Origin: an uncultured Chloroflexia bacterium
Lineage (GTDB): Bacteria > Chloroflexota > Anaerolineae > Caldilineales > Caldilineaceae
Length of the DNA: 64,000 bases
Direction: 5' to 3'
Assembly (NCBI GenBank): GCA_963765875.1
Contig: CAVXYK010000029.1
Span: forward strand, 111,153 to 175,152
Shown here: positions 12,576 to 33,544 of the stretch, piece after piece
How positions within the stretch are numbered: the stretch's first letter is position 1
How the letters are laid out: every line of letters starts with the position of its first letter
Notes under the pieces: model-generated
What the model was told of the DNA's origin: nothing
The model's database searches: none
Seen by the model: only the letters and a program-made list of their open reading frames with translations
Program-made: the position numbers and the translations under genes

Positions 12576-12884
12576 GATGGCTTTGCATAGATGGAAAGTG
12601 TGGTTCTTGGCACTGACAGTGAAAATTGTAGCCGCCGGAATGTCACCTGTCAATCGCCGCGAACGCGGGTGCAGTTCACGCCAAAGGCGAGATCGTTTGG
12701 AATGACTTCCTGTCTTCTTCGACCACGTGTACTTCATCACGCGGCCAAACGCGGGCGATGTGCTTCGTGATAATTCGTGTCAGAATGGGATCCTTGTAGT
12801 CGGCTCACAAGTTTGCAACGAACCCTCGCGTCAGATGTACAATAGGTGAAACTCAATCAGACCACTCCCATCGGAAGGACCAGA

Positions 12885-15919: not shown

Positions 15920-16948
15920 CTACCCCGTGATCAACTTGACCTGTTCCGGTTGGCCGTTGCGCGGCTGGAGCTTGCCGATGACGATGGCCTCCGGCACGGC
16001 GGATACGACCTTGTCGGCATTGGCTGCGGAGACAATGCCGACCATCCCGATGCCCATGTTGAAGACCCGATATGCCTCTTGCTGATCCATACCACTCCAC
16101 ACGAGCAAGTTATCGAAAATCGGAGGGGTGCGCCAACGGCTCACATCGATTTCGGCGGCCAGGTTTTCAGGCAAGACGCGTGGAATGTTGTCTACAAAGC
16201 CGCCGCCGGTGATGTGGGCCAGCCCTTTGATATCGACACCGGCCTCGATCATCTGCTCGATTTCAGTCACGTAACAGCGATGGGGCGCCAGCAAGGCGTC
16301 GGCCAGCGTCTGTCCGTCGTCGAGGGTCAGATTCAGGTCCCGGTCGGCGACGAGGCTGCGGATGAGCGAATAGCCGTTGGTGTGGGGCCCGGAACTGGGC
16401 AATCCGACAATCAGATCACCGGCCTGCATGACATCTTGCTGGGGCCAGAGCGCATCACGGTCCACCAGCCCGACGACGGTGCCGGCAAGATCGAAGGCTC
16501 CTTCAGTGTAGACGCCGGGCATCTCTGCGGTTTCGCCGCCCAGCAGTGCACAGCCGGCAGCCTGGCAGGCCTCGGCCACGCCGGTCACGACCGCGGCCAC
16601 GGCCTCGGGCACAAGCTTGCTGGTGGCGATGTAGTCAAGAAAGAAGAGCGGCCGCGCATTCTGGACCAGGATATCATTGACGCAGTGGTTGACAATATCA
16701 TGGCCGATGCCGTGCCAGCGTCCGAGTTCGGCGGCCAGTTTGACCTTGGTGCCTACACCGTCGGTCGAGGCTACCAGCACCGGTCTAGCCGGCAGATTTT
16801 CCAATGCGTAAAGTCCGCCGAAACTGCCGATATCGGCCAATACGCCCGATGTATATGACGCACGCACGGCGCCCTTCATCATGTCAACGGCGCTCTGTGC
16901 GGCATCAATGTCGACGCCGGCTTGCTTGTAGGAATCGGAACTGGACAT
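15920..16948 (-). CDS. purM: Phosphoribosylformylglycinamidine cyclo-ligase (AIR synthetase)
   Basis: YKQAGVDIDAAQSAV, DGVGTKVKLA, GGETAEMPGVY, AHITGGG; 342 aa. Confidence 0.9.
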   Translation of the reverse strand: MSSSDSYKQAGVDIDAAQSAVDMMKGAVRASYTSGVLADIGSFGGLYALENLPARPVLVASTDGVGTKVKLAAELGRWHGIGHDIVNHCVNDILVQNARPLFFLDYIATSKLVPEAVAAVVTGVAEACQAAGCALLGGETAEMPGVYTEGAFDLAGTVVGLVDRDALWPQQDVMQAGDLIVGLPSSGPHTNGYSLIRSLVADRDLNLTLDDGQTLADALLAPHRCYVTEIEQMIEAGVDIKGLAHITGGGFVDNIPRVLPENLAAEIDVSRWRTPPIFDNLLVWSGMDQQEAYRVFNMGIGMVGIVSAANADKVVSAVPEAIVIGKLQPRNGQPEQVKLITG

Positions 16949-17202
16949 GGCTTCTCTTCGCTATGGTTGCTTGTTGGCGGTAGGCGGTCATTCCATTTGG
17001 GCGGACACAAAGGCACGCCCCTACCAGTTGGACGTGTCCATTGTAGATCATTCTGATGGTGCAACCGATCCTCGAAGGCCAGAACATTTTCTTGAGCGGG
17101 AACGTCTTTGGAGAGCAGGGATTTTGGCCGCTGGCCTCGGGCACATTTGTCCGGCTACAGAGTTCATGAAATGTCCGAACACAGCGCAAAGGAGTGGACG
17201 TC

Positions 17203-18814
17203 ATGTCATATTCAGATCGAGTTCGCGATCTGGGCGCCGATCCAGAGCAACTTGAAACGACCTATCATCAGGTCATCGAGATGGGCGATGAGCAAGCCTT
17301 CGCCACTGCCATCGACGGACGCCTACAACGAAGAGCCGGACAATCTGCTCTATGCCGCCTGGCACTATCGTCTGGCCCATTCCCTGGCCGATCGGCTCGA
17401 CGAATGGCGCATTGCCTGGGCGTGGGCCATCCCGCTTGCGATTGTCAACGGCCTGTTACTATGGTGGCTCTCTGACGATGCCCAGTTCAGCGTTCAGATC
17501 GCCGGGACAGGCGACATCCAGGGCTACAACTCGATCCCCAGATCCTGCTGCTCTGGGGGCCAATCAGCGCAGCTCGCTGTCCTGACCTATCTGTGCGTGG
17601 CCGGACGGCACGGTGGGCGCACCTGGTTGGCGTCGTCGCGGCGCTGGCGCTTCTGGTCGTCTACGTGCTCCTGTTCTATTCGCGCACGGGACCGGCCATC
17701 TTCCAGGAACAGTATCTGATGCTCATGGTCTTTCACCTGCCGCTGGCGGCCTGGTCAGCAGTCGGCATCTACCTGCTGTTCGGTCTGCCCGATGCCGAAG
17801 AACGATTTGCCTTCCTCCTCAAATCACTGGAGGTCGCGGTGCTGGCCGGGCTCTTTTTGATTGCGGGCATGGCCTTCGTCGGGATCTCCGTGGCGCTCTT
17901 CGATGCGTTGGATATCCAACTCTCCGAGCTGGTCATGCGGCTCCTTCTGGCTGGGGGCGGCGGACTGATCCCGGTGCTGGCCACGGCCATGACCTACAAC
18001 CCGGGGCCCACACCTGCCGGCCAAGCCTTTGGCTCTGGCCTGAGCCGCCTCATCGCCTTGGTCATGCGCCTGATGTTGCCTCTGACACTGGCGCTTCTGG
18101 CAATCTATCTCGCCTTCATCCCGATGAATTTCCGAGCGCCCTTCGAGAATCGGGACGTGCTGGTCAGCTACAACGCCATGCTCTTCGGCGTGATGGCATT
18201 GCTGCTTGGGGCAACACCCACGCGTGAGCGCGATGCAGCGGGCAAGACCGGCGTATGGCTCCGGCGCGGCATCATCTCGCTGGCCGTCGCTGGCCGTCCT
18301 TGTCAGCCTCTACGCACTCTCGGCCATCCTCTACCGCGCCTGGCAGGATCGCCTGACGCCCAACCGCCTGACATTCATCGGCTGGAACGTCGTCAACATG
18401 GCTATTCTGTTGTTGATTCTCTGGAAGCAGATCTCGAAGCGGGGAAAGTCCTGGTTGTCTGCCCTGCACAGCGCCTTCGCCACCGGCGCGCTGCTCTACG
18501 TCGGCTGGATGCTTGTCGTGATTCTGGCTGTGCCCTGGTTCTTCGGCATCAGCCAGGGCGATATCGCCGATCTGCCCATCTCGGTTCAGTCCATCGTTTA
18601 CGAACGGGCCGAACCTATTTTGCTCAAGTGTCCCACCAGTCCGCACATCTATCTGCTGGACGACGGCGAGAAGCGCTGGGTCCAGGACATTCCGACCTTT
18701 GAAGGAGAAGGCTACGTCTGGGGCGACGTGTCCATGATCCAATGTGACGATCTGCGCAGCATTCCCGACGGTCCGCCGATTCCGCCCGATGCCGGTGAAC
18801 CGCCACAGCCGTAG
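17203..18814 (+). CDS. Polytopic membrane protein, family not recognised; at least three apparent frameshifts
   Basis: ATG 17203 with AAAGGAG upstream. Successive pieces in ORFs 17194.., 17108.., 17593.. and 18206..18814 read on from one another (for example NEEPDNLLYAAWHYRLAH, many TM helices, soluble C-terminal domain). Confidence 0.5.
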
Positions 18815-19243
18815 CGTAGCAGGCACGCGTTGCTATCTGCCGCGGTCGACCCTGACCCGGCGGGTGATGCTCTCACTGGTAACGACCATCGACGACTGGG
18901 TGACGAGTTTGTCCGGTGCCCGAAAGAGCGTTTCCGCCAGCGCGCTGTGGGGATCGCGGTCCGTCACTCCGCGCTGCCGATAGCGGCCGCGCTCGCCGCC
19001 GGCATCCAGTCGCCGACTGATGCCATGGGTCTCTTCCGCCTCACGAACGGCCAGCAGGATGTAGGGAAAGAGCGCGTGGGCATTGCCGAAGAGGGTTAAG
19101 TCGAACATGATAGTATCCTCGATTCGGACCGTGGTTGTGCGCTACTGGGATTGAAGAGTGAGCACCATCGTGATAAAATATGACCATAGTCATGACTATG
19201 GTTTGGCGCTCGATTGTCTAGCTGATAGGACGGAGTGAATGAA

Positions 19244-19474
19244 ATGCAGACAGTCTCCAAGAGCAAATTGAAGGCCGAGATGTTGCGCATCTTCCGCGAG
19301 ATCGAAGAGTCCGGCGAAGAGTTGATCGTCACCGACAACAATCGTCCGGTGTTGAGTATCCGCCCAGTGTCACAGGGACGTAGCGTCGGGGAGGTCTTTG
19401 CCGATATAAGAGGCAAGGTCGTATTCCACGAAGACCCAAACACGCCAACATGGGATGACTGGGAGGATCTGTAG
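19244..19474 (+). CDS. Type II antitoxin, Phd/YefM family
   Basis: MQTVSKSKLKAEMLRIFREIEESGEELIVTDNNRPVLSIRPV. The stop abuts the PIN toxin start. Confidence 0.75.
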   Translation: MQTVSKSKLKAEMLRIFREIEESGEELIVTDNNRPVLSIRPVSQGRSVGEVFADIRGKVVFHEDPNTPTWDDWEDL

Positions 19475-19856
19475 ATGGTCGTCCTCGATACCGCTGCGCT
19501 TGATCTACTGGACGCTCGAAGCGGAAACCCTCTCGCCGGTAGCAGCCAAAGCCATTACTGAAAACCGGCAGGTCATCGCCAGTGCCATCTCTATCTGGGA
19601 GATCGGCTGGAAGACAAAACTGGGCAAGCTCACATTACCGATTTCAACGCGTGAATTCGCAACACGCCTCACTCAAGTTCAGAACGTAGAAATCGTGGCG
19701 GTGGACTCCGAAACCTGGCTGCGCAACGTAGCGCTGGATTGGGATCATCGCGATCCGGCTGACCGCACCATCGTGGCCACGGCTGAACTACGCGGCTGTC
19801 CCCTGGTGACGCCGGACCGGCGGATACGCGACTTCTACGACCTGTCGATCTGGTAG
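19475..19856 (+). CDS. vapC: Type II toxin, PIN domain (VapC-like), one apparent frameshift near 19497-19503
   Basis: The ATG at 19475 gives MVVLDTAAL, then the frame of ORF 19455..19856 gives IYWTLEAETLSPVAAKAI...DPADRTIVATA. One extra base in GCGCTTGATCTACTGG separates them. Confidence 0.7.
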
Positions 19857-19877
19857 AGCGAGGGGCGTTTCAGCTCT

Positions 19878-21253
19878 GTTTCAATCCACGCCCCCCGTGA
19901 GGGGGGCGACGTGGTGGCTAGACTCAGGATGTCTAATCCAAAAATGTTTCAATCCACGCCCCCCGTGGGGGGGCGACGCGATTGCCTGCACGTTATGGCC
20001 ACAATGCGAGCCGTTTCAATCCACGCCCCCCGTGAGGGGGGCGACCTTTATCGGCATCGAACTGGATGAGCAACTACACGGTTTCAATCCACGCCCCCGC
20101 GTGAGGGGGCGACGGCACGTTCGGAATTGGTCGACGTGGCCGAAGCCGTTTCAATCCACGCCCCCCGTGGGGGGCGACCAACAGCGCCGAGCCGGGCGGC
20201 GAATCCCGGCAGTTTCAATCCACGCCCCCCGTGAGGGGGCGACTGCTTCTGATCATTGGCCGCAGGCGATGCGAAGAGTTTCAATCCACGCCCCCCGTGG
20301 GGGGGCGACGTGATGACTTGGAGGATAATATGAGCGACGATCTGTTTCAATCCACGCCCCCGTGTGGGGGGCGACTTGCTTCTGATCATCGGCCGCAGGC
20401 GATGCGAAGAGTTTCAATCCACGCCCCCCGTGAGGGGGGCGACGTGGAACGCACCCTCTCCGGTCAGAACTATGCAAGTTTCAATCCACGCCCCCCGCGT
20501 GGGGGCGACCGGTGCCGTTCGTGTTGGCTATGACCATCAGCTATGTTTCAATCCACGCCCCCCGTGGGGGGGCGACCAGACGTGCAGTTTGATGAGCAAA
20601 TGTATCAGAGGCATGTTTCAATCCACGCCCCCGTGAGGGGGCGACTCGGATTGGTTGCCGTGGTCGACCGTGTGCTGGAGTTTCAATCCACGCCCCCCGT
20701 GAGGAGGGCGACATGATATTGCTATGTCCGTTGCCCGCCGTACAAAAGTTTCAATCCACGCCCCCCGTGAGGGGGGCGACGTGGGCGAAGGCTGTCGGCA
20801 TGAGCGCGATTGAGGTTGTTTCAATCCACGCCCCCCGTGAGGGGGCGACGGGATACGTTCAAAGCACTAGCAAGCAACTATATTGTTTCAATCCACGCCC
20901 CCCGTGAGGGGGGCGACGAGGTTGCAATTCTACAGAAACAAATAGCAGCACTGTTTCAATCCACGCCCCCCGTGAGGGGGGCGACCGCACTAAGCGGGAC
21001 AGCTGCACCTGACTGAGCAAGTTTCAATCCACGCCCCCCGTGAGGGGGCGACATTAAATCCACTTGGTCCATAGCACGATGCAACGTTTCAATCCACGCC
21101 CCCCGTGAGGGGGGCGACATAATGATTTTTCAAAATCGGCTCTTTGATTAGTGTTTCAATCCACGCCCCCCGTGAGGGGGGCGACGGCGTACGTTCAAGG
21201 CGAGTATGCATCTGAGGCCGGTTTCAATCCACGCCCCCCGTGAAGGGGGCGAC
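19878..21253 (-). CRISPR. Type I-C CRISPR array, 21 repeats / 20 spacers, transcribed on the minus strand
   Basis: Plus-strand repeat GTTTCAATCCACGCCCCCCGTGAGGGGGGCGAC. The reverse complement ends ...GTGGATTGAAAC, as in I-C repeats. Spacers are 33-38 nt. Repeat copies are 31-33 nt and differ mainly in C/G-run length. cas2 and the leader lie on the 21254 side. Confidence 0.95.
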
Positions 21254-21426
21254 CGCAACATTTAGGTGACAAACACATGCCGACCCCCTAAATATTGATT
21301 CTGCTATTTCAATTGTACCTCAACACTTGCCTTGAATGCCCTGGAATCGCGGTTGGTAGGCGCCGAAAAGGCTGCGAACCTGTAGGACAGAAACATGGTC
21401 ACTTCCAGTTCGCAATCGTCATGATT
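21254..21426 (-). promoter_or_regulatory. Putative CRISPR leader
   Basis: Non-coding, lower-GC stretch between the corrected cas2 stop (21427-21429) and the first repeat. Position is the only evidence. Confidence 0.45.
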
Positions 21427-21717
21427 TCAGGCAATCAAGGGTCCCTTCCAGATCAATGCTGCCTTTGTGCCTATATGCTCAACACGATTCCGCCATTCAT
21501 TGCCCAGATAGTAGAACCGAGGCTGTCCTTTTCAGGATCTATCAACTCCACCAATCGATGCTTCAACTGCCTCATCTGGGCTGCATCCACCAGGCACTCA
21601 AAGACCGAGTTTTGGACGCGCTGCCCGTAATTTTGACACTGTTTTGCCACCAATCGCAACCGTCGCTTTCCGGCATTGCTGGTGGTATTCACGTCGTAGG
21701 TGATCAAGAACCATCAT
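21427..21717 (-). CDS. cas2: CRISPR-associated endoribonuclease Cas2, at least two apparent frameshifts
   Basis: MMVL (ATG 21717), then ITYDVNTTSNAGKRRLRLVAKQCQNYGQRVQNSVFEC (ORF 21471..21707), then the third-frame end TKAALIWKGPLIA* (stop 21427-21429). Confidence 0.75.
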
Positions 21718-21741
21718 CGGCGTCTAGCCTCCTGCCAATGC

Positions 21742-22773
21742 CTAATTCCAGAAGAAGGGTGGATATGCGTCGATGTCTCCGCGCAGATGACGGGCCAGCA
21801 ACATGGCTTGGACGTGGGGAATCAGCCCAAAGGGAATGCGTTCTTTCAGATATGGGTGCATAATCTCATCTTGCTTGCGTTTCTGCCAGGCCCCCAACAC
21901 CGCCTTGCGGGTCTCGTCATCCATCAGAGTACCGCCGCTTTCCTTCTGAACAAAGCCCTTGCCGCTAACTTGCTTGCGATTGACCAGGGTGAGCGCCAGC
22001 CGGTCGGCAAAGACCGGACGAAGCTCTTCCATCATGTCCAAGCGCCAGAGAGGGACGGCCAGGACGATCAGCGTGCAAGAAGCCCACATACGGGTCAAGG
22101 CCCACAGTCTCCAGGGCGGACGCAACTTCATAGGTCAGCAGAGTGTAGAAAAACGAGAGCAGCGCGTTCATGTTGTCCTGGGGCGGACGTCGAGTGCGTT
22201 TCTCAAAGAAGAAACTCTCCTTCTGATGCAGAATCAGTTGCCCAAAGACCCCAAAGTAGCGTTTGGCCGCGTTGCCTTCCAGTCCTCGCAATGTCTCCAC
22301 CGACTCTCTCCCTCACGGATGGCAGATCAGCATCTCCTTAAGAAATCAGATGTAGTTCGCAAGCCGGCACATCGACCAGCAAGGCATGGTCACGAAGTGC
22401 CCGGTCGATAACCGTCCGGCTGTTGGCAATCTTCCCCAGCAAAGCCGACTGGCGATGGTTGCACTGGCGGCTTCGTTTTGAGAAAGATCATATTGCTTCT
22501 TGCGCAGCAGCAGATTGCCCTTTTCTTTGCCCGCTAACCCGTGCCAGAAAGCGCCCGCTGGGCTTGAGAAAGCAGAGCCCGATGTTGCGTTCGGCACATG
22601 CGCCCATCAGCGCCGGGCTCACCCCGGATAGTTGAAGCAGACGATGTTTTCCAGGTTGTGCAGCGGCAGGCGCATGGACGTTGTATCATCCTTCTTGACC
22701 ACGACGTTTTCACCATCCAAGGACACATAGGCTTTGGGTGTGGTGACATAGAGAACGTTGGCCAGTTTTTCAT
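21742..22773 (-). CDS. cas1: CRISPR-associated endonuclease Cas1 (I-C type), at least four apparent frameshifts
   Basis: Fragments [81 protein letters not shown] and [10 protein letters not shown] are spread over ORFs 22534..22773, 22346..22597, 21965..22300 and 21742..22131. The first shift is in the A5 run right after the ATG. Confidence 0.85.
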
Positions 22774-22825
22774 TGCCTACGCCCTTTCGATCTGTTGGCG
22801 GATGTATTCAGAGGCCGGCACAACT

Positions 22826-23448
22826 TCATTCTTGCAGATGGGGCAGGCAGATATCGGCCAGCGAGCAGGACTTGCACCCCTTGAACGGTTTTACTTTCGG
22901 CGTGTATCCTCGCTGAAAGTACGCGTGCATTTCCTTGGCCGCCTTGCGCACCAGGTCGCGCAGTTCGTCATGTGAGGTCCACAGCCACACGGCGGCGGGT
23001 TTGGCCGTAGTAGAGATAGCCGGTAGGGATCGAGATCGCCAGCATCTCCTCCAGGCAGATGGCCTGAGCGCATAGCTGGGCCTCGTCGCTGCGATCATGT
23101 TTCTTCTTGCCCCGCTTGTATTCCACCGGCGCGGCGAGAAAAGCAGCCCTCGTGCCCAGGCAGGTGGACGCCATCCGGCGATTCGGTGAACTCCACCACA
23201 TCACATATCCCCGACAGACCGAGCGAGCGTGAAGCCACCGGCACCGACCGGGCGACGATCACGCCCTTGCGCTTTTCGGTGAAGAAGGGATCGTCTGCCC
23301 GGCGGTGCATGATTTGGCCCTCGACGGTCAGCGCATTCTCCTGCCACTGACGCTCCACATGGATCAGCGCCCACTGCCGGCGGCAGAAGAGGAAGTGTTG
23401 GATGCCCGAGAGGGGCAGCATATCTTCGGGACTGGTTTCGGTGATCAT
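22826..23448 (-). CDS. cas4: CRISPR-associated exonuclease Cas4, at least two apparent frameshifts
   Basis: LSGIQHFLFCRRQWALIHVE (N-terminal Cys), EYKRGKKK, QLCAQAICLEEML, C-terminal CKSCSLADIC cluster. Pieces lie in ORFs 23095..23448, 22968..23204 and 22826..23098. The ATG overlaps the cas7 stop (ATGA). Confidence 0.8.
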
Positions 23449-23865
23449 AGTTTTTCGATGACGGTCACACCATCGGGCGCGCTGTCTGCGTCGATACTCA
23501 CGTCGTAATCGGTAAAACTGCGCGGCACCACGACATCTGGCTTGCGCGTGACCTTGACCAGATCAAACAACTGATGCGAAGGAGCATTGCCCAGATCGCT
23601 GTCATGTTTGAAGACGATCAGGGTGCGGCTCGCCATCTTGCCGCGGGCCGCCGAGTGGTCGTGTTCGAACATGTTGACCAGAGCATCCCACAGCAGATCC
23701 AGGTCTTCATCGGAAAATCCGGTACCTTTGGTGGGTGCGTTGGCGAGTTTGGCCGAGACATAGCCCTCTGCACGATATAGGCCATAGGGGACATAGTGCT
23801 TGCGGCCCATTTCTGTTGTCTTGTCTTCGTCCTTTCGCGTCACAGTGACTCGGTTATGGAAGCCT
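23445..23865 (-). pseudogene. cas7: cas7 (Csd2) C-terminal fragment, separated from the N-terminal part by an IS element
   Basis: VTVTRKDEDKTTEMGRKHYVPYGLYRAEGYVSAKLA...FSDEDLDLLWDALVNMFEHDHSAARGKM...LGNAPSHQLFDLV, typical of the I-C Cas7 C-terminus. Confidence 0.85.
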
Positions 23866-25455
23866 CTAGCAGTTTGTCGGAGAGAACCGACAGTCGGCTC
23901 TCTGACGGATCGGTGGTAATGTGAGAGCATGGCAAAGAAACGTAAGTTCAGACAAGCGGACTATGAGGCAACGGAAAAGACCCAAATCACGTTGGGCGAA
24001 GCGTTGCCGGAAGATCATCTGGCTCGATTCATCGTGAGCGTAGTCAGCCTGCTCGATTTGAGCAAGGTCTATGGTCAGTACAGCGACCGTGGGGGAGCGC
24101 CGTATGCGCCAGAAGTGCTGCTGGGGCTGTTGCTGTATGGCTACGCAACCGGGACCTTCAGTTCTCGCAAACTGGAGAGGGCGACGTACGAATCGATTCC
24201 GCTTCGATACATTGCCGGGAACATGCATCCAGACCATGACACTATTAACCAGTTTCGCAAGGAGAATCTGGAGACGCTGAAGGGATTGTTTGTACAGGTG
24301 CTGATGCTTGCCTACATATTGGGCCATGTGAGACTGGGCAACATCAGCATTGATGGCAGCAAGGTCCATGCCGATGCGTCCAAGAGCAAGGCGGTGAGTT
24401 ATGGACGTATCTTGTCGATGGAGAAGCGCTTGCAACAAGAGATCAATGAGTTGTTCGCCCTGGCTGAAAAGGCGGACAGCGAGCAACCGGACGATTTTGA
24501 TATCGACGATGAGATCGGACGGCGCACCAAGAAGCTGGTGGATCTTGCCCAAGCCAAGGCAATGATAGAAACGATGGCCGCTCAACGCCATGCTCAAGAA
24601 CAAGCCGAGTATGAACAGAAGATGGCTGCTCGCAAGGAGAAGGAAGAGCAAACTGGCAAGAAGACGCCAGGTCGTATCCCTCAGCCACCTGAACCCGGCC
24701 CGCGTGACAAAGACCAGGTCAATTTCACCGATCCAGAGTCTCGTATCATGAAGAATGGCAACAACAAGGCTTTCCAACAATCGTACAATGCCCAGGCTGC
24801 GGTGGAACATGAGAGTCGCCTCATTGTGGGCAATACTCTTTCCAATCACCCCAACGACAAGCAGGAAGGTGTGGCAACGGCCCAGGCGATCCCGGCTCAA
24901 CTGGGTACCCCGAATGCGGCGGCCATGGATGCCGGCTATTTCAGCCCTGGGACAATCCAGGGCTTTGAAGCCATGGGCATCGAACCTTACATTGCTGCAG
25001 GTCGAGACAGCCATGCGTTCGATCGGCGGACGCTTCTGGAGGGTGAGCCAGAACCCCCGCCCGAGAATGCCAGCCACAAGACCAAAATGCACTACAAACT
25101 GTGCACCGAAGCCGGCAAAGCCATCTACAAACTGCGCAAGAGCACGGTTGAGCCGGTCTTCGGCATCATCAAGGAGATCATGGGTTTCCGACAGTTTTCC
25201 TTGCGCGGACTGACCGCGGCGGCCGGCGAATGGAATCTTGTTTGTTTGGCCTACAATCTGAAGCGTCTTCATGTATTACACACGACCTGATTCTGCGCGC
25301 CCTCAGACGGGAGGGCTGAGAAGATGCGACGCTCTGGAGCATGCATATCCGTGATTATGTCTACTCCCTGCCTGCTATCGAGTCGATTTTGTCAAAAAAC
25401 ATGGCAACAGGCTCAACTATGTTCAATCTATGCTGTCTCTCCGACAGCCTGCTAG
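23866..25455 (+). mobile_element. IS1182-family (IS5-like) insertion sequence, 1590 bp
   Basis: Imperfect terminal inverted repeats CTAGCAGTTTGTCGGAGAGA (23866..) and the reverse complement of ..TCTCTCCGACAGCCTGCTAG (..25455). CTAG at both ends. Single transposase ORF. Flanks are the two halves of cas7. Confidence 0.85.
23929..25290 (+). CDS. IS1182-family DDE transposase
   Basis: 453 aa, uninterrupted. N-terminus LPEDHLARFIVSVVSLLDLSKVYGQY...GAPYAPEVLLGLLLYGYATGTFSSRKLERA (InsH-N/DUF772-like). The C-terminal DDE region ends VEPVFGIIKE...F.LRG...EW.LVCLAYNLKRL. Confidence 0.9.
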   Translation: MAKKRKFRQADYEATEKTQITLGEALPEDHLARFIVSVVSLLDLSKVYGQYSDRGGAPYAPEVLLGLLLYGYATGTFSSRKLERATYESIPLRYIAGNMHPDHDTINQFRKENLETLKGLFVQVLMLAYILGHVRLGNISIDGSKVHADASKSKAVSYGRILSMEKRLQQEINELFALAEKADSEQPDDFDIDDEIGRRTKKLVDLAQAKAMIETMAAQRHAQEQAEYEQKMAARKEKEEQTGKKTPGRIPQPPEPGPRDKDQVNFTDPESRIMKNGNNKAFQQSYNAQAAVEHESRLIVGNTLSNHPNDKQEGVATAQAIPAQLGTPNAAAMDAGYFSPGTIQGFEAMGIEPYIAAGRDSHAFDRRTLLEGEPEPPPENASHKTKMHYKLCTEAGKAIYKLRKSTVEPVFGIIKEIMGFRQFSLRGLTAAAGEWNLVCLAYNLKRLHVLHTT

Positions 25456-25919
25456 TTGTGAAATCGGATCAATGCTGCGCGAGAAGTTGATTTGTACTGG
25501 ACCTCGAACGATACCTGCTGGAACATCGGTGCTCATCACAGCACCAAAGGTGCGATATCGTAGAAGTTCGCACACATCCATTTACGCAATTCCTGAATTT
25601 TCTGCACATTGTTCCGGATTGCCTTTATTTCATTCTTTGAGGCAGGAATTCGGTGTAACGGTAGCAACGTATGCTGCCTCGTGTTGAGTATTCAAAAGGA
25701 TATTCTCTTTGACATAGATTTGATGCCCTGGAGCATCTTCATGTACCAGTTCCGCATAGTTGCGGATCTTGCGCTTCAAGCAGACATCGGTGACGATGCC
25801 GTGGCCGGTTTCTGGATCAATCCGTGGCATATTTCCGGCATCCGGATCGCCGTTGGGGTTACCGTTTTCCACATCGTAAACAGGACAAATTCGTAGCGGT
25901 TGTTGATAGGGGTAGTCAT
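25456..25919 (-). pseudogene. cas7: cas7 (Csd2) N-terminal fragment with additional frameshifts
   Basis: ATG 25919 ([14 protein letters not shown]), then [38 protein letters not shown] (ORF 25630..25872), then [39 protein letters not shown] up to the IS boundary. Confidence 0.8.
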
Positions 25920-25963
25920 GGTCTGATCTCCTGTGAAGATAGCTATTGGTTCTCGGGTTCTGA

Positions 25964-27816
25964 TCAGGATCGATTCAGAGGGCGGTTCGTTTCCTTTTTG
26001 GTGAAGAAGGCGGCGCGTTGATGGTAGTAGCCCAGCACGAAAATACCCTGTTCATCCAGGGTCAGCCGTGAAGGAATGGGGTTCTTCTCAACGTCGAGCA
26101 AATTCAGAATGTCTTGAATACGTCGATCGCTGGCATAGCCATATTCTGCCTTGGCAATGTGATGCTGAGAGAGTCGCAGAAGTGTAGGGAACACGGTCCT
26201 GGGCGAAGCGCAGGCCGAAGTGAAGTAGCGATCTTTGATGCTGGCGTTGACGTCACCGATGGCTTCTCCCTGAACTTTTTCCAACACGGCGAATAGGCGG
26301 CCCAGCAAATAGGCTGGAATTGTGGATTGCTCGTTGAGAGCCATGGTCAGTACCTCCTCGAATGGGTTTTGGGGTTGAAGGCGATATTTGCGCAACAAAA
26401 ATGCCTTGATCGCCGCGGCGCGCACGTAGTTAATTTTGTGGATGCCTTTTCCGAGTCATCCATGTCGGCACGGATGCGGTTGATGATGGCGTAGTAAAGG
26501 GCCGCCGGATACGGTGCGTTGGTGAGAATGGAACGAGAAACAACTCCTGCCAACAAGGGAGATGCATTCTTGTCTTTGGATTTCTTGGAGATGGTCTCGT
26601 TAAGAATTCGCCATACAGTCAGATAGGTTGGCTGATCATCGTACTCCTTGACTATCTCCAAGATCCCGATAGTGCGCCATGATATTCTGGACAATCTTCT
26701 CGAAGGGATCTGCGATGAAGAAACGCACCGAAACCCGTGCTGCATTGGGGGCCAGGCCAAGGATGTAAAAGCGCGGGTTTTCGTCCCTCAAATCTGCCAG
26801 CAAAGCATCCAAATCAAGCATTTGAGTGCGCTTGACCTTCTCGGATACTGTTTTCAAGGCGGCTTCGGCCTTTTTCCGTCCAGCCTGTTTTGCGGTCGCT
26901 TCATCCTCAACATATGTAGGATCGAAGATGCTGGCGAAGGCGGTTTCATAGACCCGGCTGTCGCTCTCGGCCCAATAGACCACCGTCGTGTCACCCAGAT
27001 AGAACTTCTTGTTCGGGTTGGCATCTGACAGCAAGTAATTCAGAACCGTCGTATAGGCGAAAGTCGCTTTTTCGCTGACCGGCGAATTGATACCCTGAGA
27101 ACGATTGTATGATTCGTAAGCAGCAGCATTGAAGCCTACTAATGTTGCCCCGCTTGACTGTGCCCCTCGTACCCGTTTCAAGCTTGGATGCAAACGTGCG
27201 ATGGATCGATCTTTCTCCAGTCACGAGGCATTGCATGTGATTCGCTCTCCTGTCCAGCTCTGGTGTTCTTCCCAAACCTCACGAATGCGCGGATCATTGT
27301 GTGCAAACGCACCGTTAATCAGAAAGACTAGATTTCCACCTGCCATAAGGGCGTCCAGGTTTCCGGCTATAGCAGGATAGTTGGCGGCCATGCGCTGGAT
27401 CATATTGTTCAAGAAACGCAAGCATGGCACGAGCAGGCTCGCAATCAACACCACTCAACAGATTCGTAATGCAACTGACGAAACGCACTCAAAGCGGTCC
27501 TGGCTGTATTCAGGCTTCTTATCGTCCCTTTCTGAAATCCCCAGAACATACACGCTGTTGTCCCACAGGAAATTTGGCGGCGACATTGACTGAGCGCTTG
27601 ACTTGGCCCGGCACAACCATCGGTCGCGGCACCTCCACCATCTTCTTGCCGCGCTGTTCCTGCGTAAACTGCGGCAGAATATCCAGCAACTCGCCCTGTG
27701 CTGAAATAGTTAAGTGCAAAGCTGACTCCAACCGTACTGTACCCAAACGGGGCGATCTCAGTTTTGGGATCTTCTACCAGAATGTCGTAATACCGATTCA
27801 AAGCTTGCAGAATCAT
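25964..27816 (-). CDS. cas8c: Type I-C large subunit Cas8c (Csd1), at least six apparent frameshifts
   Basis: [17 protein letters not shown]... at 27816, with an ATGA overlap with the cas5 stop. Collinear pieces in ORFs 27445.., 27519.., 27221.., 26991.., 26636.., 26347.. and 25964..26425 cover about 617 codons in changing frames. Position between cas5 and cas7. Confidence 0.75.
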
Positions 27817-28475
27817 TGCCGCACCTCAACTTCGGTCAGATCAATTACACCGTCTTGCATGGTCGCTTTGAAGAACTGAGGCCTAATATCCTGAGGATCT
27901 CGAAAGTCCAGGTCATAGAGCATCCAGCCCAACTCTTGTGTGCCGCTCAACGGGCTTTGAGGAATATTCCCCCCTTCGATAAGGTCCACCTTTGCGCCAA
28001 ACTCTCGGGTTCCCAGATAGGGTGCGTGGTAATGTTGCCCTTTGCGCAGACGGCGCAAGGCAATGTTGTAGTGCTTCTCCACCGTGTCATCTGGTCCGGC
28101 TTGTTCAGGTACAGGTTCAAAGTGGGCTTCCACAATGTAATCCACATTTTTCAGCACGAGGGCGGCGCGCTGTTGACGGGCATCGGTTGCATCCAGAAAA
28201 AACGGATCTGTCGCTCCATTCATGCGTCGCTCCGCCTCACGAGTTGAAATCTTCTCGCTCACCTCGTTGCGCCGGATATTGGTGAATTCGATCTCACTCA
28301 GTACATGGATCTTGTCGATCACCCAACGGATGGCCGGTTTCCAGTAGATGGCCTCGATGACACCTCGTGCCGCCGATGGCGTGATGACATCGTAGCTCAC
28401 CCGTTCGACCTTCATTTCGGGTCGAGTGAACAGAGCGTAATCGCCACGGATGCGAATCGTGATTCCGTATCCCAT
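27813..28475 (-). CDS. cas5: Type I-C Cas5 (Cas5d/Cas5c) pre-crRNA endoribonuclease
   Basis: ATG 28475 preceded by AAGGAGG. MGYGITIRIRGDYALFTRPEMKVERVSYDVITPSAARGVIEAIYWKP. Uninterrupted. Confidence 0.85.
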   Translation of the reverse strand: MGYGITIRIRGDYALFTRPEMKVERVSYDVITPSAARGVIEAIYWKPAIRWVIDKIHVLSEIEFTNIRRNEVSEKISTREAERRMNGATDPFFLDATDARQQRAALVLKNVDYIVEAHFEPVPEQAGPDDTVEKHYNIALRRLRKGQHYHAPYLGTREFGAKVDLIEGGNIPQSPLSGTQELGWMLYDLDFRDPQDIRPQFFKATMQDGVIDLTEVEVRQ

Positions 28476-28498
28476 AAGATGAACCTCCTTTCTGGTCT

Positions 28499-31400
28499 TC
28501 AATCAAAGAATATGGCTTCCCCGCCACGACTTTCCGGGAGGACAAGCCCGGTTTGGGGATGGTAATAGTGCTTCATCCAATCTTCGTCTAACACATGGCA
28601 TACATCAGCGATTGTCTGAATGACACCCAGACTCTGCAAACTCTGAAATTCTCGTTCGTAAATGTTGACGGTGTACACCTGCAACTTGCGCAAGGTGCTA
28701 AACGGATAGAGCGTGTGCCGCAATTCCCGCAGCCGAATTTTCGCTTCTTTATCATACGGAATCACCACCGACACCGTATCGTCATCAATCAACTTGAAGT
28801 TTTCGGCCGCTGTTTTGAAATCGAAATCCAAGCTTCGGGAACCTTTGTCGAGAAAACTTAGAATTCTCCTGGCATCGAAACTGGCTTTATCATGCAGGGT
28901 GTAAAGACGGTCGTAGTAGGCCTCAATTGCCGCAATCGTCGTTGGATCCGTACTGAAATCACGCAGGGTACTCTTGGCCACAGCACCCGTCTGTGCGATG
29001 AAGATCGGCGTGCGCTTGATGAAGTCGGTCTTGGGGTCGAACACGAGCATTTCCCCGATCGATTGCTTACCTTCCCGATTGATTCGCCCTGCCGCCTGGA
29101 TGATTGAGTCCAATCCCGCCAGCGCACGATAGCCGACCGGGAAATCCACGTCGATCCCGGCTTCCATAACCTGCGTCGAGACGACGCGGCAGACGTCCCC
29201 GTCTTCAAGCCGTTGGCGGATTTCCGTCAGGATTACCTTGCGGTGTACCGGACACATCAAGGTTGAGAGGTGAAATCGCCCTTCCCCGACCAGTCCATCA
29301 AACAGCCCCTTGGCATGGCGACGGGTGTTGACAATACACAAAACCTGGCGCTGCGCTTCAAGCTTCTCCAGTAACTCTTGATCGGGCAGAGTTCCCAGTT
29401 CCTTCACCTGTACACGGCGATAGAAATCGAACAACTGTTGGGGATTGGGAGCCAGTTCCGTAAACTGCGTACTGTCTGGGAAGAATCGCTGCAAAGATGG
29501 TTGCGTGGCTGTGCAAAAGACTGTGCTGACTCCGTAATTATGCACCAATTCCTGAACAGCCGATAGGCTGGGTGTCATGTATTCTCGCGGCAGCGTTTGA
29601 GCCTCATCGAAAATGATCACGCTCTTGGCGATGTTGTGCAGTTTGCGCGCCCGTGATTTCTTGCTGGCAAACAGGGACTCGAAGAACTGCACATTGGTCG
29701 TAACCACGATAGGGATGTCCCAGTTCTCGGCAGCCAATCTCAGCTTCTCATGTACGTCGTTGGTCTCATCGTCTGATGTATGTCGCAGCCCCTCCCAATC
29801 AAAATTGGAATGGTGCTCCAAGATGTTTTCCTCTCCCAGTATGCCCAATGACTCCCTAAACACCGCAGCGTTTTGTTCAATGATGCTGGTAAAGGGAATG
29901 ACATAGATGACTCGCTTCAACCCGTGAGCAATGGCGTGATTGAGTGCAAAAGCCATTGAGGCCAGTGTCTTGCCGCCACCAGTCGGCACGGTCAAGGTGA
30001 AAAAGCCCGGATCTTGGTTGGCTTTAGCCCGGCAGGCGTGCAGGGTTTCGGTACGCTTGCGGTTGATGGGCGTTTGCGGATCCTCGAAACGCTGCAAATA
30101 TCGGTTGAATTGCTCAGCCAATGCCTCGATACTGGCATACTGACCGCGGGGCTTTTCGACCTCTTGCATATACCGTTCAGTGTCCAGCCAGTCGGCATCC
30201 ACCAAGGTAGAGAACAACATGCGCGTCAAGAAGGATATTGAAAAGCCTGGATATTCACGATTGACTTTTATGTGCAGGGGCTGGAATTGTAGTTGGTTGG
30301 CATCAAGTTCCGTGGCATAGGCGCTGTAGTCTTCCAGTTGTTTCTTCTCCCGCCGCGCCAGAAGGGTTCCATCCGCTTCCGTATCACCAAGGCTGCCATA
30401 GTCGGGCAGACCAGAATGGTGCCCAGCGATGCAGTAGGACAGTAACTCGGCATAGGTGTTATCGGGCTTTGCGGGGAATAGGCTGACTATTTCCCGTGCG
30501 CCGGCAGTAGCATGATCGACTCGCTTGTTCGAGCCGCGCAACCGATCCTGAAAAGCCTGCGAGTATTTGCCAATGTCGTGCAAAATCCCAGCTACTCGTG
30601 CCAGTTCGGACACACCGGCATCTCGCCCCAGCTCAAAAGCCAGATCGCCAGTTTGGAATAAGTGGTCTCTCAGCAACTGCCACTCTGATTCATCGATGCC
30701 GGGCTTCGAGTGGGCATAGTATCGCTCGTCGAAGGTTTTGAACGCTGAAACAGCGTACAACTCAGCCAGCTGTCGTGCTTCTCGAATCAGCGACTCCCGC
30801 AATTTTACCGGCTCCAACACTTCGACTTTGCTGCCCCACCCGCGTATCCACGGCAACATCTCCTGCGGTTCGGCTACCCAAGCCCGCCAGAGCAGACTGC
30901 CGTCCGCTTCCAACACGGTCTGCTGCGACTGATGCCAGCGCGTCTCCTCCACCCGCTTGGCCACGCGTGGATGGAACTTGAGCACCACCTCCACCGGCTC
31001 GGCCTCCGTGTACCAGATGCCCCAGGCGTTAGCGAGCTTGGCACGCGGGTCAAAATCATCAGGAATCTCATAGCTGTCTCGGAGAATCTCGGCCGAGCGC
31101 AGCCGCTCCACCTTGAAAGTGCGCACAGCGCTTGGCGGCTCACGCCAGCCGATGACGTGTGCAGTCTGACCGACGGCATACGGTTCGATGAAGTAGGGCG
31201 AAAAGGTGTACTCAAAGACCCGCCCGTCTTCCATCTGGTGACTCACCTTCACCTTGCGCCCCACGGACCACGCCTCGGTCAGCTTCTGCAGCACGTCCAG
31301 GTAGACCGGATCACGATAGGCCGCAGCCTCGTCCATCATTTCGGCAGAACGCAGCAGATGTCGGCTCACGTTGTTGTCCAGACGCCGCAAGGCCATGCCC

Positions 31401-31729
31401 AGCTTGCGTAGCGACGACGCAGCATGGGGGTTCTGTTTGTCCGTACGCGTTGCCAGCAGACGGGTCGCTAAATGGATGGCCATGATTTCATGTAGGCTGA
31501 AGGACGCTTTGGTCAGGTCGGCCGAGCGGTCCAACTTGAGCTTATTGCCGTCTAGATCATCTTCGTAGATGCTGGGCGGCAGATGATCCTTGTCCAGATA
31601 GCGACCAATGGTAGATCGGTTCACATTCAGGCGTCGGGCGATCTCGGCCCGAGTCATGCCCTCCGGGTGCGCCCAGAGCAGTTCCTCGATCTGCAACAGG
31701 CGTTGTGATTTCTCTTGTGCCCTGTTCAT
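28499..31729 (-). CDS. cas3: Cas3 HD nuclease/SF2 helicase with N-terminal HTH-WYL-WCX regulator-like extension (about 330 aa)
   Basis: Single 1076-codon ORF. N-terminus MTRAEIARRLNVNRSTIGRYL (HTH), VGRKVKVSHQMEDGRVFEYTFSPYFIEPYAVGQTAHVIGW...RTFKVERL (WYL-like). Then the HD domain (AGILHDIGKYSQAFQ, CIAGHHSGLPD), Walker A VPTGGGKT, DEAQ and QAAGRINREG. Confidence 0.9.
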   Translation of the reverse strand: MNRAQEKSQRLLQIEELLWAHPEGMTRAEIARRLNVNRSTIGRYLDKDHLPPSIYEDDLDGNKLKLDRSADLTKASFSLHEIMAIHLATRLLATRTDKQNPHAASSLRKLGMALRRLDNNVSRHLLRSAEMMDEAAAYRDPVYLDVLQKLTEAWSVGRKVKVSHQMEDGRVFEYTFSPYFIEPYAVGQTAHVIGWREPPSAVRTFKVERLRSAEILRDSYEIPDDFDPRAKLANAWGIWYTEAEPVEVVLKFHPRVAKRVEETRWHQSQQTVLEADGSLLWRAWVAEPQEMLPWIRGWGSKVEVLEPVKLRESLIREARQLAELYAVSAFKTFDERYYAHSKPGIDESEWQLLRDHLFQTGDLAFELGRDAGVSELARVAGILHDIGKYSQAFQDRLRGSNKRVDHATAGAREIVSLFPAKPDNTYAELLSYCIAGHHSGLPDYGSLGDTEADGTLLARREKKQLEDYSAYATELDANQLQFQPLHIKVNREYPGFSISFLTRMLFSTLVDADWLDTERYMQEVEKPRGQYASIEALAEQFNRYLQRFEDPQTPINRKRTETLHACRAKANQDPGFFTLTVPTGGGKTLASMAFALNHAIAHGLKRVIYVIPFTSIIEQNAAVFRESLGILGEENILEHHSNFDWEGLRHTSDDETNDVHEKLRLAAENWDIPIVVTTNVQFFESLFASKKSRARKLHNIAKSVIIFDEAQTLPREYMTPSLSAVQELVHNYGVSTVFCTATQPSLQRFFPDSTQFTELAPNPQQLFDFYRRVQVKELGTLPDQELLEKLEAQRQVLCIVNTRRHAKGLFDGLVGEGRFHLSTLMCPVHRKVILTEIRQRLEDGDVCRVVSTQVMEAGIDVDFPVGYRALAGLDSIIQAAGRINREGKQSIGEMLVFDPKTDFIKRTPIFIAQTGAVAKSTLRDFSTDPTTIAAIEAYYDRLYTLHDKASFDARRILSFLDKGSRSLDFDFKTAAENFKLIDDDTVSVVIPYDKEAKIRLRELRHTLYPFSTLRKLQVYTVNIYEREFQSLQSLGVIQTIADVCHVLDEDWMKHYYHPQTGLVLPESRGGEAIFFD

Positions 31730-31817
31730 TCGACACTTCCTTTGTGGTTGGTGGTTGTCGCTGTGAACAACTTATCACAGGGTGCTGCGATTTCCTGCAA
31801 CACCCCGTGAAATTGGC

Positions 31818-32027
31818 CTATTTCCGTCGGCCGAATGGCCAAAGACCGCCACGTTCATCCTGGCTGAAGAGGATACCGGCCTCTTCCATACCCGCCAGCC
31901 GATGGCCAATGGTCGATACCGCTACGTCCAGTTCTCTCGCCAACTCAGCCTGGGTTTTACCCGGATCGCTCTCGACTACCTGCGCCATTGTTTCATACTC
32001 ATTCTTGCTCTTGCGCCAAATACCCAT
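31818..32027 (-). CDS. Small winged-helix DNA-binding protein upstream of the cas operon
   Basis: MGIWRKSKNEYETMAQVVESDPGKTQAELARELDVAVSTIGHRLAGMEEAGIL, an HTH pattern. Start uncertain (track ORF 31818..32051). Confidence 0.5.
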   Translation of the reverse strand: MGIWRKSKNEYETMAQVVESDPGKTQAELARELDVAVSTIGHRLAGMEEAGILFSQDERGGLWPFGRRK

Positions 32028-32587
32028 TTTGCACCTCCATGTTGGGAACAATCGGACTCGTTGTCCGAACTATCCCCAGCATGGAGGTGACATGTTGCAC
32101 CTACTGCAACACGCATAGATCAATTCCGAATACTCATCAAGTTCACCGGATTAGGCACAAGTCCATTCAAATAAGCCGGGATGACCGTTCAGTAGGCACG
32201 CCCACGTGCCGGTCGCTCCCGTGTAGAGCCGCAAGTGGGCGTGCTCACTGGACGTTATTTGAATTGTCTTGGGATTAGGCAGGCTCAAGCGAATGAAGCA
32301 GCAATCCGCTCCATTCCAAATCTGCTGTAGTATTGCTCCTCCAATAACAAACCACGCACTCCGGCAATCGCCGGGTGCGTGGGTCAAGAACATTTCCGTT
32401 GGCCAGAAACTCAAACCTCGCGCGGGAGATACGCATGATCACCCTTTCGGGGTGTGTGGAGCGGACACTCGACGGCGGCGGCAGTGCTGTGCCGGTCAAG
32501 TCTGTGGTGCTATGGATTCAGTATAGTTCTCCTCAAAAAAGGCGTCAATCAGGATTCCAGCGTTGGAGGGTTGTGACCCTCTGAACG

Positions 32588-32683
32588 ATTGTGGGCTGGA
32601 CAACCCGACCTCCGGGAGGTGTCTGAGAAACCTCTGGCTCGTACACCGTTTGTGGGCACCTCCCGGAGGTCTAGCCCCACAAT
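32588..32683. repeat. Long-hairpin repeat family 'ACCTCCGGGAGGT', copy 1
   Basis: ATTGTGGG..ACCCGACCTCCGGGAGGTGTC .. CACCTCCCGGAGGTCT.GCCCCACAAT. Closely related copy at 48133..48233 and a variant at 47001..47099. Confidence 0.8.
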
Positions 32684-32779
32684 TCTTCAGAGAACCAGGG
32701 TTGTTTGGCGATTGACACACATGTTGATGCGCCATATAATATCGCATGAGACATCACAAATTGTTCGAGCGAGGCAAAC

Positions 32780-33169
32780 ATGGCACGATATCCCCTAAAC
32801 CTACCTCAGCAGCTCAAACAGGATGCAGAGACCTGGGCTGGGAAACAGGGCATCTCCCTCAACAAATTTATCCTCTGGGCGACAGCAGAGAAAGTCGGTT
32901 CGCTGAACCAACAGCTTGACGATCCTGCATTTCCGCAGATCACCTACCGCCGAGGCGCAAGCGGTATTCCCACGCCGATTCTGAGAGGCACAGGGCTACG
33001 TGTGCAAGCGGTGGCCATCGCCCATGAACGGTGGGGCATGCAGCCTGCCGAAATCGCTGACGAGTACGGGCTTACGCAACGCCAGATCAAAGAAGCGCTG
33101 GCCTTCTTTGACGCGCATCGCGCAGAAATCGAAATGCACATAGCCGGAGAGCAGCGGCTGAGCGGCTGA
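32780..33169 (+). CDS. Putative antitoxin: RHH/HicB-like N-terminus fused to a DUF433-like domain
   Basis: YPLNLPQQLKQDAETWAGKQGISLNKFILWATAEKV (RHH-like), then RRGASGIPTPILRGTGLRVQAVAIAHERWGMQPAEIADEYGLTQRQIKEALAFF (DUF433-like). Confidence 0.55.
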   Translation: MARYPLNLPQQLKQDAETWAGKQGISLNKFILWATAEKVGSLNQQLDDPAFPQITYRRGASGIPTPILRGTGLRVQAVAIAHERWGMQPAEIADEYGLTQRQIKEALAFFDAHRAEIEMHIAGEQRLSG

Positions 33170-33181
33170 ACGGTTGAACAG

Positions 33182-33535
33182 ATGGCAATCCCCCGGCTAC
33201 ACCTCGATGCAGACGTTTCCTATCGCACCCTGCACATGGCCTTGAATGAACGAGGCCATGATGTAACGCGCACGCCATGTGAGTGGATGCCCATGGATGC
33301 CGATGATGAACAGCAGTTGCTGGAGGCCGGCGCACGTGGGCGTTGTATCATGACGTTCAACATCGGCGATTTCATGCGCCTGGCGAAGACACACCCTGAC
33401 CATGGCGGCATCGTGCTGGCTCAGCAGGTGGACTGGTCGCTCGCATCGCTAATTTCTGCGCTGGACAACTTGTTGACACAGACTGACGCTGCGGATTGGC
33501 CCGGTCAAGTGCGTTGGCTCACCGAGTGGAAATAG
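33182..33535 (+). CDS. DUF5615-like (PIN-like) putative toxin partner of DUF433
   Basis: 117 aa, 12 nt downstream of the DUF433-like gene. HLDADVSYRTL...MTFNIGDF pattern. Family from memory only. Confidence 0.45.
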   Translation: MAIPRLHLDADVSYRTLHMALNERGHDVTRTPCEWMPMDADDEQQLLEAGARGRCIMTFNIGDFMRLAKTHPDHGGIVLAQQVDWSLASLISALDNLLTQTDAADWPGQVRWLTEWK

Positions 33536-33544
33536 AGCTTCCTC

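Follow-up and report, generated by a model that had tools for sequence, protein, structure and literature searches.

The window analysed here, a 64,000-nt stretch of contig CAVXYK010000029.1 from an uncultured Chloroflexia bacterium, contains a 14.7-kb island (18812..33543) that has no counterpart in the same-genus genome G001. Analysis of synteny by tblastx shows that the sequences flanking the island (3.4-18.8 kb and 33.5-45 kb of the window) adjoin each other in that genome and are colinear with it (G001:C14). The island holds a toxin-antitoxin pair, a CRISPR array, a cas operon, and an upstream regulatory region. The operon lies on the minus strand and has the type I-C order cas3-cas5-cas8c(Csd1)-cas7(Csd2)-cas4-cas1-cas2, as judged from the Pfam families of orthologous loci, with no ORF between these genes. 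Type I-C systems have no cas6, crRNA being processed by Cas5d. The array (19878..21253, minus strand) adjoins the operon and has 21 repeats of 31-33 nt; the repeat itself has 33 nt and a GC-rich stem, and its coding strand terminates in ATTGAAAC, as is typical of type I-C.

Frameshift-aware protein-to-DNA alignment was used to compare the operon with two intact orthologous operons, L010 (an NCBI metagenome contig, 78.6% nucleotide identity) and L011 (a Logan contig with the full operon). Two genes are clean. The WYL-fused cas3 (28502..31729) aligns over 1076 of 1076 codons with no frameshifts, stops, or gaps relative to L010 (83% identity), and cas5, which encodes Cas5d (27816..28475), over 220 of 220 codons with no frameshifts or stops (93% identity to L010). 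The other five genes are all broken. In cas8c (Csd1; 25950..27816) there are 10-11 frameshifts, among them eight +1 insertions within 27215-27708, and the fragments match successive parts of PF09709. An insertion sequence (IS) splits cas7 (23448..25919), which has four frameshifts (25879, ~25647, 25555, and 23847), not counting the IS and one copy of CTAG. Three are found in cas4 (22780..23448; at 23145, 22970, and 22831), six by alignment in cas1 (21745..22774) plus one, from three-frame reading, at the A5 run 22766-22770, and two in cas2 (21430..21717; at 21708 and 21520) relative to L011 Cas2 (83% amino acid identity). Together the five genes have about 27 single-base frameshifts in 4.7 kb, on average one every ~175 bp. 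Were events uniform from cas3 to cas2, the chance of none in cas3 and cas5 would, by our own arithmetic, be ~1e-7. An earlier note on this DNA had given a minimum of 17 frameshifts for the five genes, which holds as a minimum but is too low. It had also placed a break at the A5 run after the cas1 ATG, which alignment missed and which is the extra cas1 event counted above, and had called cas3, cas5, and the IS transposase clean, as alignment to orthologues or to other IS copies confirms (no frameshifts in each).

Where does the damage begin and end? The note took it to be concentrated in cas8c-cas7-cas4-cas1-cas2, with a sharp boundary at cas5/cas8c. All five genes are indeed broken, but they are only part of an indel-dense block (17317..27708, ~10.4 kb from the first to the last localised frameshift) in which coding DNA, where assessable, has ~5 frameshifts per kb; outside it, a frame-HMM finds only ~0.15 frameshift-like junctions per kb of the window. 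The block continues through the array into a conserved membrane-protein gene that is unrelated to cas (17203..18811, plus strand; 536 codons, no Pfam family). Compared with the intact 547-codon open frame of G001 (88% amino acid identity), this gene has five frameshifts (17317, 17535, 17572, 17610, and 18289) and no stops. Neither end of the block coincides with a gene border or an island border: one end is inside the membrane-protein gene, the block straddles the left edge of the island, and it stops mid-island at a right-most break (27708) that is 108 nt inside cas8c. The apparent boundary at cas5/cas8c is therefore only roughly in register with the gene junction, and is no more than one end of a technical block. 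Repeats at the two block ends that would mark a rearrangement or a misjoin were looked for and none was found. Also within the block is the toxin-antitoxin pair, a Phd/YefM antitoxin and a PIN toxin (19229..19853, plus strand; 0.6 kb), both intact as judged from Pfam matches and ORFs; this clean pair counts against reading the block as an artefact.

The CRISPR repeats act as an internal gauge of sequence error, since they should be identical and they disagree in length. Only eight match the consensus; 13 of the 21 deviate, 11 of them in length, and the variants are scattered along the array. Over 681 nt the deviations come to 14 indels and 5 substitutions, each of them within the C6-GTGA-G6 core. 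An exact anchor search of the genome found no second array of this repeat that could have served as a clean control.

These results bear on the possibility of genuine early pseudogenisation, in which the IS inactivates cas7, the Cascade and adaptation genes gain frameshifts, and WYL-cas3 and cas5 stay under selection. Such a history would fit the clean/broken boundary near the cas5/cas8c junction, as well as the accessory status of the island in the genus, which makes it dispensable. The damage, however, extends beyond the operon: break density is equal in the neighbouring membrane-protein gene and the CRISPR repeats. Nor do the breaks carry the other marks of decay. In the cas genes and the membrane-protein gene together there are ~32 frameshifts, yet no nonsense codon in ~2090 frame-corrected codons, hardly any in-frame indels, and no large deletion. 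Indels that arise naturally are found mostly in repeats, and deletions outnumber insertions in bacterial pseudogenes; the events here are single-base, in random context, and more often extra (19) than missing (13). Cas8c shows no excess divergence, the window copy being closer to L010 (77.6% identity) and L011 (79.4%) than these are to each other (71.8%). Cas7, which is 77% identical to each of L010 and L011 where these are 90% identical to each other, may count against the artefact reading; its mismatches are grouped in a variable loop and around the IS junction and the frameshifts. A search for a nearly identical, independently assembled copy of the locus gave no match closer than 93% for Cas5 in the protein collection, too distant for strain-level comparison or a meaningful dN/dS. 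Taken with the genome-wide results given below, these observations make pseudogenisation very unlikely.

The sequence context of the events is not that suggested by the earlier note, which had described the sites it could localise as homopolymer length changes. This does not hold generally: 38% of 26 coding events are at most 3 nt from a run of at least 3, as against 39% of background positions. No enrichment of the methylation motifs GATC and CCWGG, or of any other k-mer context, was found at the events. Indels in the array repeats, unlike the coding events, are at homopolymers. Error type is also locally correlated, with eight consecutive +1 events at the 5' end of cas8c and mostly -1 events in cas1. 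The encoded fragments are highly conserved, which is the one point in favour of programmed recoding or an alternative decoding that reads through the frame changes. That idea would have to accommodate ~27 shifts of both signs at unrelated contexts with no common slippery motif, orthologues that are plain open frames, and like changes in non-coding CRISPR repeats. The lack of a common site motif effectively refutes it, and we give it a negligible chance.

The IS (23866..25455, plus strand) is of the IS5/IS1182 type and encodes a 453-aa DDE transposase (23929-25290) with Pfam domains DDE_Tnp_1 and DUF772. Its ends are inverted (CTAGCAG..TGTCGG), CTAG stands on either side, and the genome has four further copies. 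Without the IS and one of the two CTAG copies, the cas7 reading frame runs on across the junction. From these sequence features, insertion into cas7 at a CTAG target duplication looks like the only biological lesion at the locus, and its precision is a further point on the side of pseudogenisation. The multi-copy element has itself been spared, which is a point on the other side: relative to copies on two other contigs (C10 and C19) it has 99.75-99.81% identity and no gaps over 1590 bp, where ~9 indels would be expected at the rate of its flanks. That said, a clean IS would equally fit real decay that preceded a very recent IS insertion. The locus resembles other IS-disrupted or decaying CRISPR-Cas loci in having an IS5/IS1182-type element inside cas7 with a CTAG duplication; it differs from them in that there is no trustworthy further decay, with no nonsense codon, no deletion, and no acceleration of Cas8c divergence.

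Frame breaks are not peculiar to this locus. Essential single-copy genes elsewhere in the genome are also broken, rpoB once (two frames) and rpoC twice (three segments), which counts against genuine decay of the cas operon. To survey the whole genome we used a dicodon frame-HMM with a switch penalty of -5, dense stretches being labelled non-coding at -10. (A sliding statistic based on the longest covering ORF was dropped in favour of the frame-HMM as it was blurred by shadow ORFs at 57% G+C.) The scan gave 2064 frameshift-like junctions, which are over-dispersed (variance/mean 2.9) and form 84 clusters of at least 5; translation of the two largest clusters gave plainly coding fragments hopping between frames. 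The same detector run on 400 kb of a finished single-contig genome of the same family gave 0.09 junctions per kb and clusters of 3 at most, versus 0.25-0.28 per kb and clusters of up to 17 in the genome studied here. The 84 comparable clusters, against none in the finished relative, are again at odds with decay specific to the operon. The idea that the noisy blocks are low-G+C foreign islands was ruled out: the clusters have 59.2% G+C versus 57.1% in controls, and the block in the window covers only part of the CRISPR island plus a core gene.

We conclude, with a probability of about 0.9, that the cas frame breaks are a consensus or polishing artefact of a noisy assembly and not decay in nature. 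Of the two readings offered in the earlier note, a locally poor consensus is the one supported, by repeat lengths, the membrane-protein gene, rpoB and rpoC, the 84 clusters, and the absence of nonsense codons; genuine early decay after the IS hit is not supported, in view of the breaks beyond the operon, the lack of other decay marks, and the sparing of the IS. The frameshift pattern is thus almost certainly not a genuine biological feature. The assembly (29 contigs for 6.5 Mb; 93.9% completeness, 3.8% contamination) is probably based on long reads, because its few contigs run through the 1.6-kb multi-copy IS and the 21-repeat array. Its base accuracy is patchy: single-base indels are sparse over most of the genome but occur once per 100-300 bp in some 80 to 100 blocks 1-10 kb long, and cas8c-cas2 lie in one such block (window 17.3-27.7 kb). 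Very few reads probably went into building or polishing the consensus there; low read support is what we infer from the sequence pattern. Sequencing depth may have dipped locally, the segment may vary between strains, or the stretch may have been gap-filled or left unpolished. Under the artefact explanation cas3 and cas5 would be clean simply because they lie past the right end of the block, and the IS within it would be clean since its sequence is also backed by reads from the other copies in the genome.

A related possibility is that the consensus is of a strain mixture, in which at least two collapsed haplotypes, which might differ in the IS or in divergent cas8c-cas2 alleles, gave rise to indels where reads disagree; the breaks would be artefacts in that case too. 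The completeness and contamination values are MAG-like, an active multi-copy IS and the edge of an accessory island lie within the block, and the locally correlated error type would also fit. Against this, the block includes a conserved core gene and stops mid-island, and the slightly higher G+C of the dense clusters is unlike that of foreign islands. We regard a strain mixture as a possible but unlikely source.

Residual indels are known to fragment genes in long-read MAGs to an extent that depends on coverage and polishing (PMC9262707; PMC8812927), and such indels, in MAGs as in other long-read assemblies, form the closest known parallel to the present case (Sereika et al. 2022, PMC9262707; Wick and Holt 2022, PMC8812927; Kastor 2025, PMC12007338). 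The present case is like these in that single-base indels split conserved genes, essential genes are hit, density would depend on local support, and identical repeats are miscalled at C/G runs. It is unlike them in two respects. In the first place, the coding events have no homopolymer bias. Secondly, the multi-copy IS has fewer errors here than the unique sequence beside it, whereas short-read polishing usually fails in the repeats. Homopolymer-concentrated errors are the typical signature of nanopore consensus, and the lack of this bias in the coding events is a point against the artefact reading.

The underlying biology is that of an ordinary type I-C CRISPR-Cas island in which only cas7 is genuinely interrupted. 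Its gene order and Pfam families are those of L010 and L011, and its Cas3 has a WYL fusion, as in the closest relatives of this protein; the IS in cas7 sets it apart, and its other apparent defects are attributable to sequence error. The chief value of the analysis is as a warning that this assembly is no safe guide to gene breaks, apparent pseudogenes, odd stops, or variants in repeat length. In weighing other results from this genome, one should allow for ~0.2-0.3 spurious frame breaks per kb, plus blocks of 1-10 kb that are 10 to 30 times worse. Real frameshifts would have meant that WYL-Cas3 and Cas5 were selectively retained in a decaying type I-C locus, which the evidence does not support. 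It is most improbable that even some of the frameshifts are real, in a sub-population whose type I-C island is losing the large subunit and backbone of Cascade, together with the adaptation genes, but keeps Cas5 and the WYL-Cas3 fusion intact. If this were so, it would be a hint that WYL-Cas3 has a function independent of Cascade.

A type I-C CRISPR-Cas operon lies on the minus strand of the window, with a WYL-fused cas3 (31729-28502), cas5 (28475-27816), cas8c (27816-25950), cas7 (25919-23448), cas4 (23448-22780), cas1 (22774-21745), cas2 (21717-21430) and a CRISPR array of 21 repeats (21253-19878, minus strand). Two intact orthologous operons were retrieved via the clean Cas5 protein, one on an NCBI metagenome contig (L010; 78.6% DNA identity to the window operon) and one on a Logan contig (L011) in which all seven cas genes are present. 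Orthologous proteins were aligned to the window DNA with a frameshift-tolerant dynamic programme. cas3 (1076 codons) and cas5 (220 codons) aligned end to end with no frameshifts and no stops, whereas cas8c required 10-11 frameshifts, cas7 four, cas4 three, cas1 six and cas2 two. The A5 run right behind the cas1 ATG, to which the earlier note had assigned an event, is a further real one, overlooked by the alignment and seen in three-frame reading. Overall the five broken genes have ~27 events in 4.7 kb, which bears out the concentration in cas8c-cas2 described in that note and exceeds its stated minimum of 17. By our own arithmetic the probability of no event in cas3 plus cas5 is ~1e-7 if events are uniform from cas3 to cas2, so the contrast is real.

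Is this genuine early decay following the hit on cas7 by an IS5/IS1182-type element, or poor consensus? Genuine decay with ~32 indels would, judging by bacterial pseudogenes in general, be accompanied by numerous substitutions, several nonsense codons, a bias toward repeats and deletions that differ in size. All of these marks are missing, from which we infer that real decay is improbable. The events are single-base changes throughout (19 extra bases and 13 missing; one is ambiguous, +2 or -1), there are no nonsense codons in ~2090 frame-corrected codons, and codon-level gaps relative to L011 are absent from cas8c, cas4 and cas2 and number one in cas1. Localisable sites had been described as homopolymer length changes; this holds for the cas1 A5 run but not for coding events generally, 38% of which lie ≤3 nt from a run of ≥3 as against 39% of background positions. 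Nor were events enriched near GATC, CCWGG or any 4-mer. The window Cas8c is 77.6% identical to L010 and 79.4% to L011; between L010 and L011 the figure is 71.8%. Judged from these identities, divergence on the window branch is not in excess, again contrary to decay. Cas7 has diverged further (77% for the window copy vs 90% between L010 and L011); its mismatches concentrate in a variable loop, next to the frameshifts and beside the IS junction.

The damage is also not limited to the five cas genes. A membrane-protein gene left of the array (17203-18811; 88% protein identity to an intact 547-codon frame in G001, a same-genus genome) has five frameshifts (17317, 17535, 17572, 17610 and 18289) and no stops; the next gene leftward (15923-16960), which reads like purM, is clean. 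Only 8 of the 21 array repeats equal the consensus GTTTCAATCCACGCCCCCCGTGAGGGGGGCGAC. Counted over 681 nt, the others have 14 indels and 5 substitutions, each of them within the C6-GTGA-G6 core, and these are scattered over the whole array, not at its old end; the array is usable as an internal error gauge. Since window segments 3.4-18.8 kb and 33.5-45 kb adjoin each other in G001 (contig C14, ~209303-209369), the 14.7 kb between them (18.81-33.54 kb; 18812-33543) form an accessory island that G001 lacks. Besides a toxin-antitoxin pair, the array and the cas operon, the island contains an upstream regulatory region, a small wHTH gene and ~1.8 kb of largely non-coding DNA. The indel-dense block of ~10.4 kb (17317-27708) begins in a core gene, passes the left island junction and ends mid-island, its last event 108 nt inside cas8c. 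Its ends match neither gene nor island borders, and no repeats marking them were found. The boundary at cas5/cas8c that had seemed oddly sharp is therefore an approximate coincidence. With a core gene and the array repeats damaged too, decay of the cas genes after the IS hit is very unlikely.

The element itself (23866-25455) has no gaps over 1590 bp relative to copies on contigs C10 and C19 of the source genome, with ~9 expected at the flank rate, confirming that its transposase is clean. Its ends are inverted and flanked on both sides by CTAG, and cas7 minus the IS and one CTAG copy reads IDPISQLEASITE in frame vs IDPIVQQEVTITR in orthologues; the insertion thus looks genuine in this assembly and is probably real. 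At its right end (25300-25456) 156 nt are 100% identical to sequence in G001 (C2:24419-24574), a genome of another species in the genus, and four further copies in the source genome are 99.8%, 99.7%, 93.7% and 81-83% identical. This sequence evidence suggests recent activity or recent exchange of the element.

Frame breaks were then counted across all 6.55 Mb using a dicodon frame model trained on 1476 long ORFs and a seven-state Viterbi, a junction being a same-strand frame switch not ending at a stop codon. This detector is conservative: of the ≥32 events known from the cas block, it flags 11. Genome-wide it found 2064 junctions (0.32 per kb), over-dispersed (variance/mean 2.9 in 10-kb bins) and including 84 clusters of ≥5. 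The two largest (C29:176436-182649 and C28:4773-8352) translate to plainly coding fragments, by eye apparent glycosyltransferase, aminotransferase, methyltransferase, ATPase and helicase, with frame changes every 30-150 codons. In the C8:206926-215574 region rpoB is in two frames (break near 208401) and rpoC in three segments (breaks near 213081 and 214113); because both genes are essential, these breaks are assembly errors. In 400 kb of a single-contig same-family genome the same pipeline, self-trained, gave 0.09 junctions per kb, with clusters of 3 at most, vs 0.25-0.28 per kb in three 400-kb chunks of the source genome; four of five chunks had clusters of 8 to 17. Contig C3 (363 kb; lowest G+C, 55.9%) is nearly control-clean (0.20 per kb, no cluster >3); it may have been covered by more reads, or it may represent another replicon or another member of the bin. 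Homology to G001 suggests about 5-8 frame changes in the ~40 kb syntenic core of the window; frame breaks are thus some 25 to 30 times denser in the block than around it.

A block that ignores gene and island borders, disagreeing array repeats, broken rpoB and rpoC and a clean control genome support poor consensus, and we consider the frameshifts a consensus artefact of the ordinary kind (probability about 0.9). The assembly is probably long-read based, since it spans a 1.6-kb multi-copy IS and the whole array in only 29 contigs. In long-read MAGs residual indels fragment genes, depending on coverage and polishing (PMC9262707, PMC8812927, PMC12007338). Base accuracy would be patchy here, with cas8c-cas2 in a block that, like many others, has poor support; cas3 and cas5 would be clean because they lie outside it, and the IS because its sequence is additionally backed by reads from its other copies. 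Candidate causes are a dip in read depth, the collapse of strain variants, and sequence that was left unpolished or filled in at a gap. Dense clusters have slightly higher G+C than random windows (59.2% vs 57.1%, p = 4e-12), and 13 of the 84 lie ≤10 kb from a contig end, a mild enrichment over the expected 8.9%, so a coverage-related cause fits better than a foreign-island one.

Events close together tend to share an error type: at the cas8c 5' end (27215-27708) eight in a row are +1 insertions, unlike those in cas1 (22343-22768), five of seven of which are deletions. The cluster at C29:176436-182649, just right of the window, is the densest of the genome (20 junctions in 6.2 kb), its fragments reading like glycosyltransferase, methyltransferase and aminotransferase genes. 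Outside the block, an M20-family peptidase gene (12852-14031) has one isolated frame change at ~13582-13589 relative to the intact 395-codon G001 frame.
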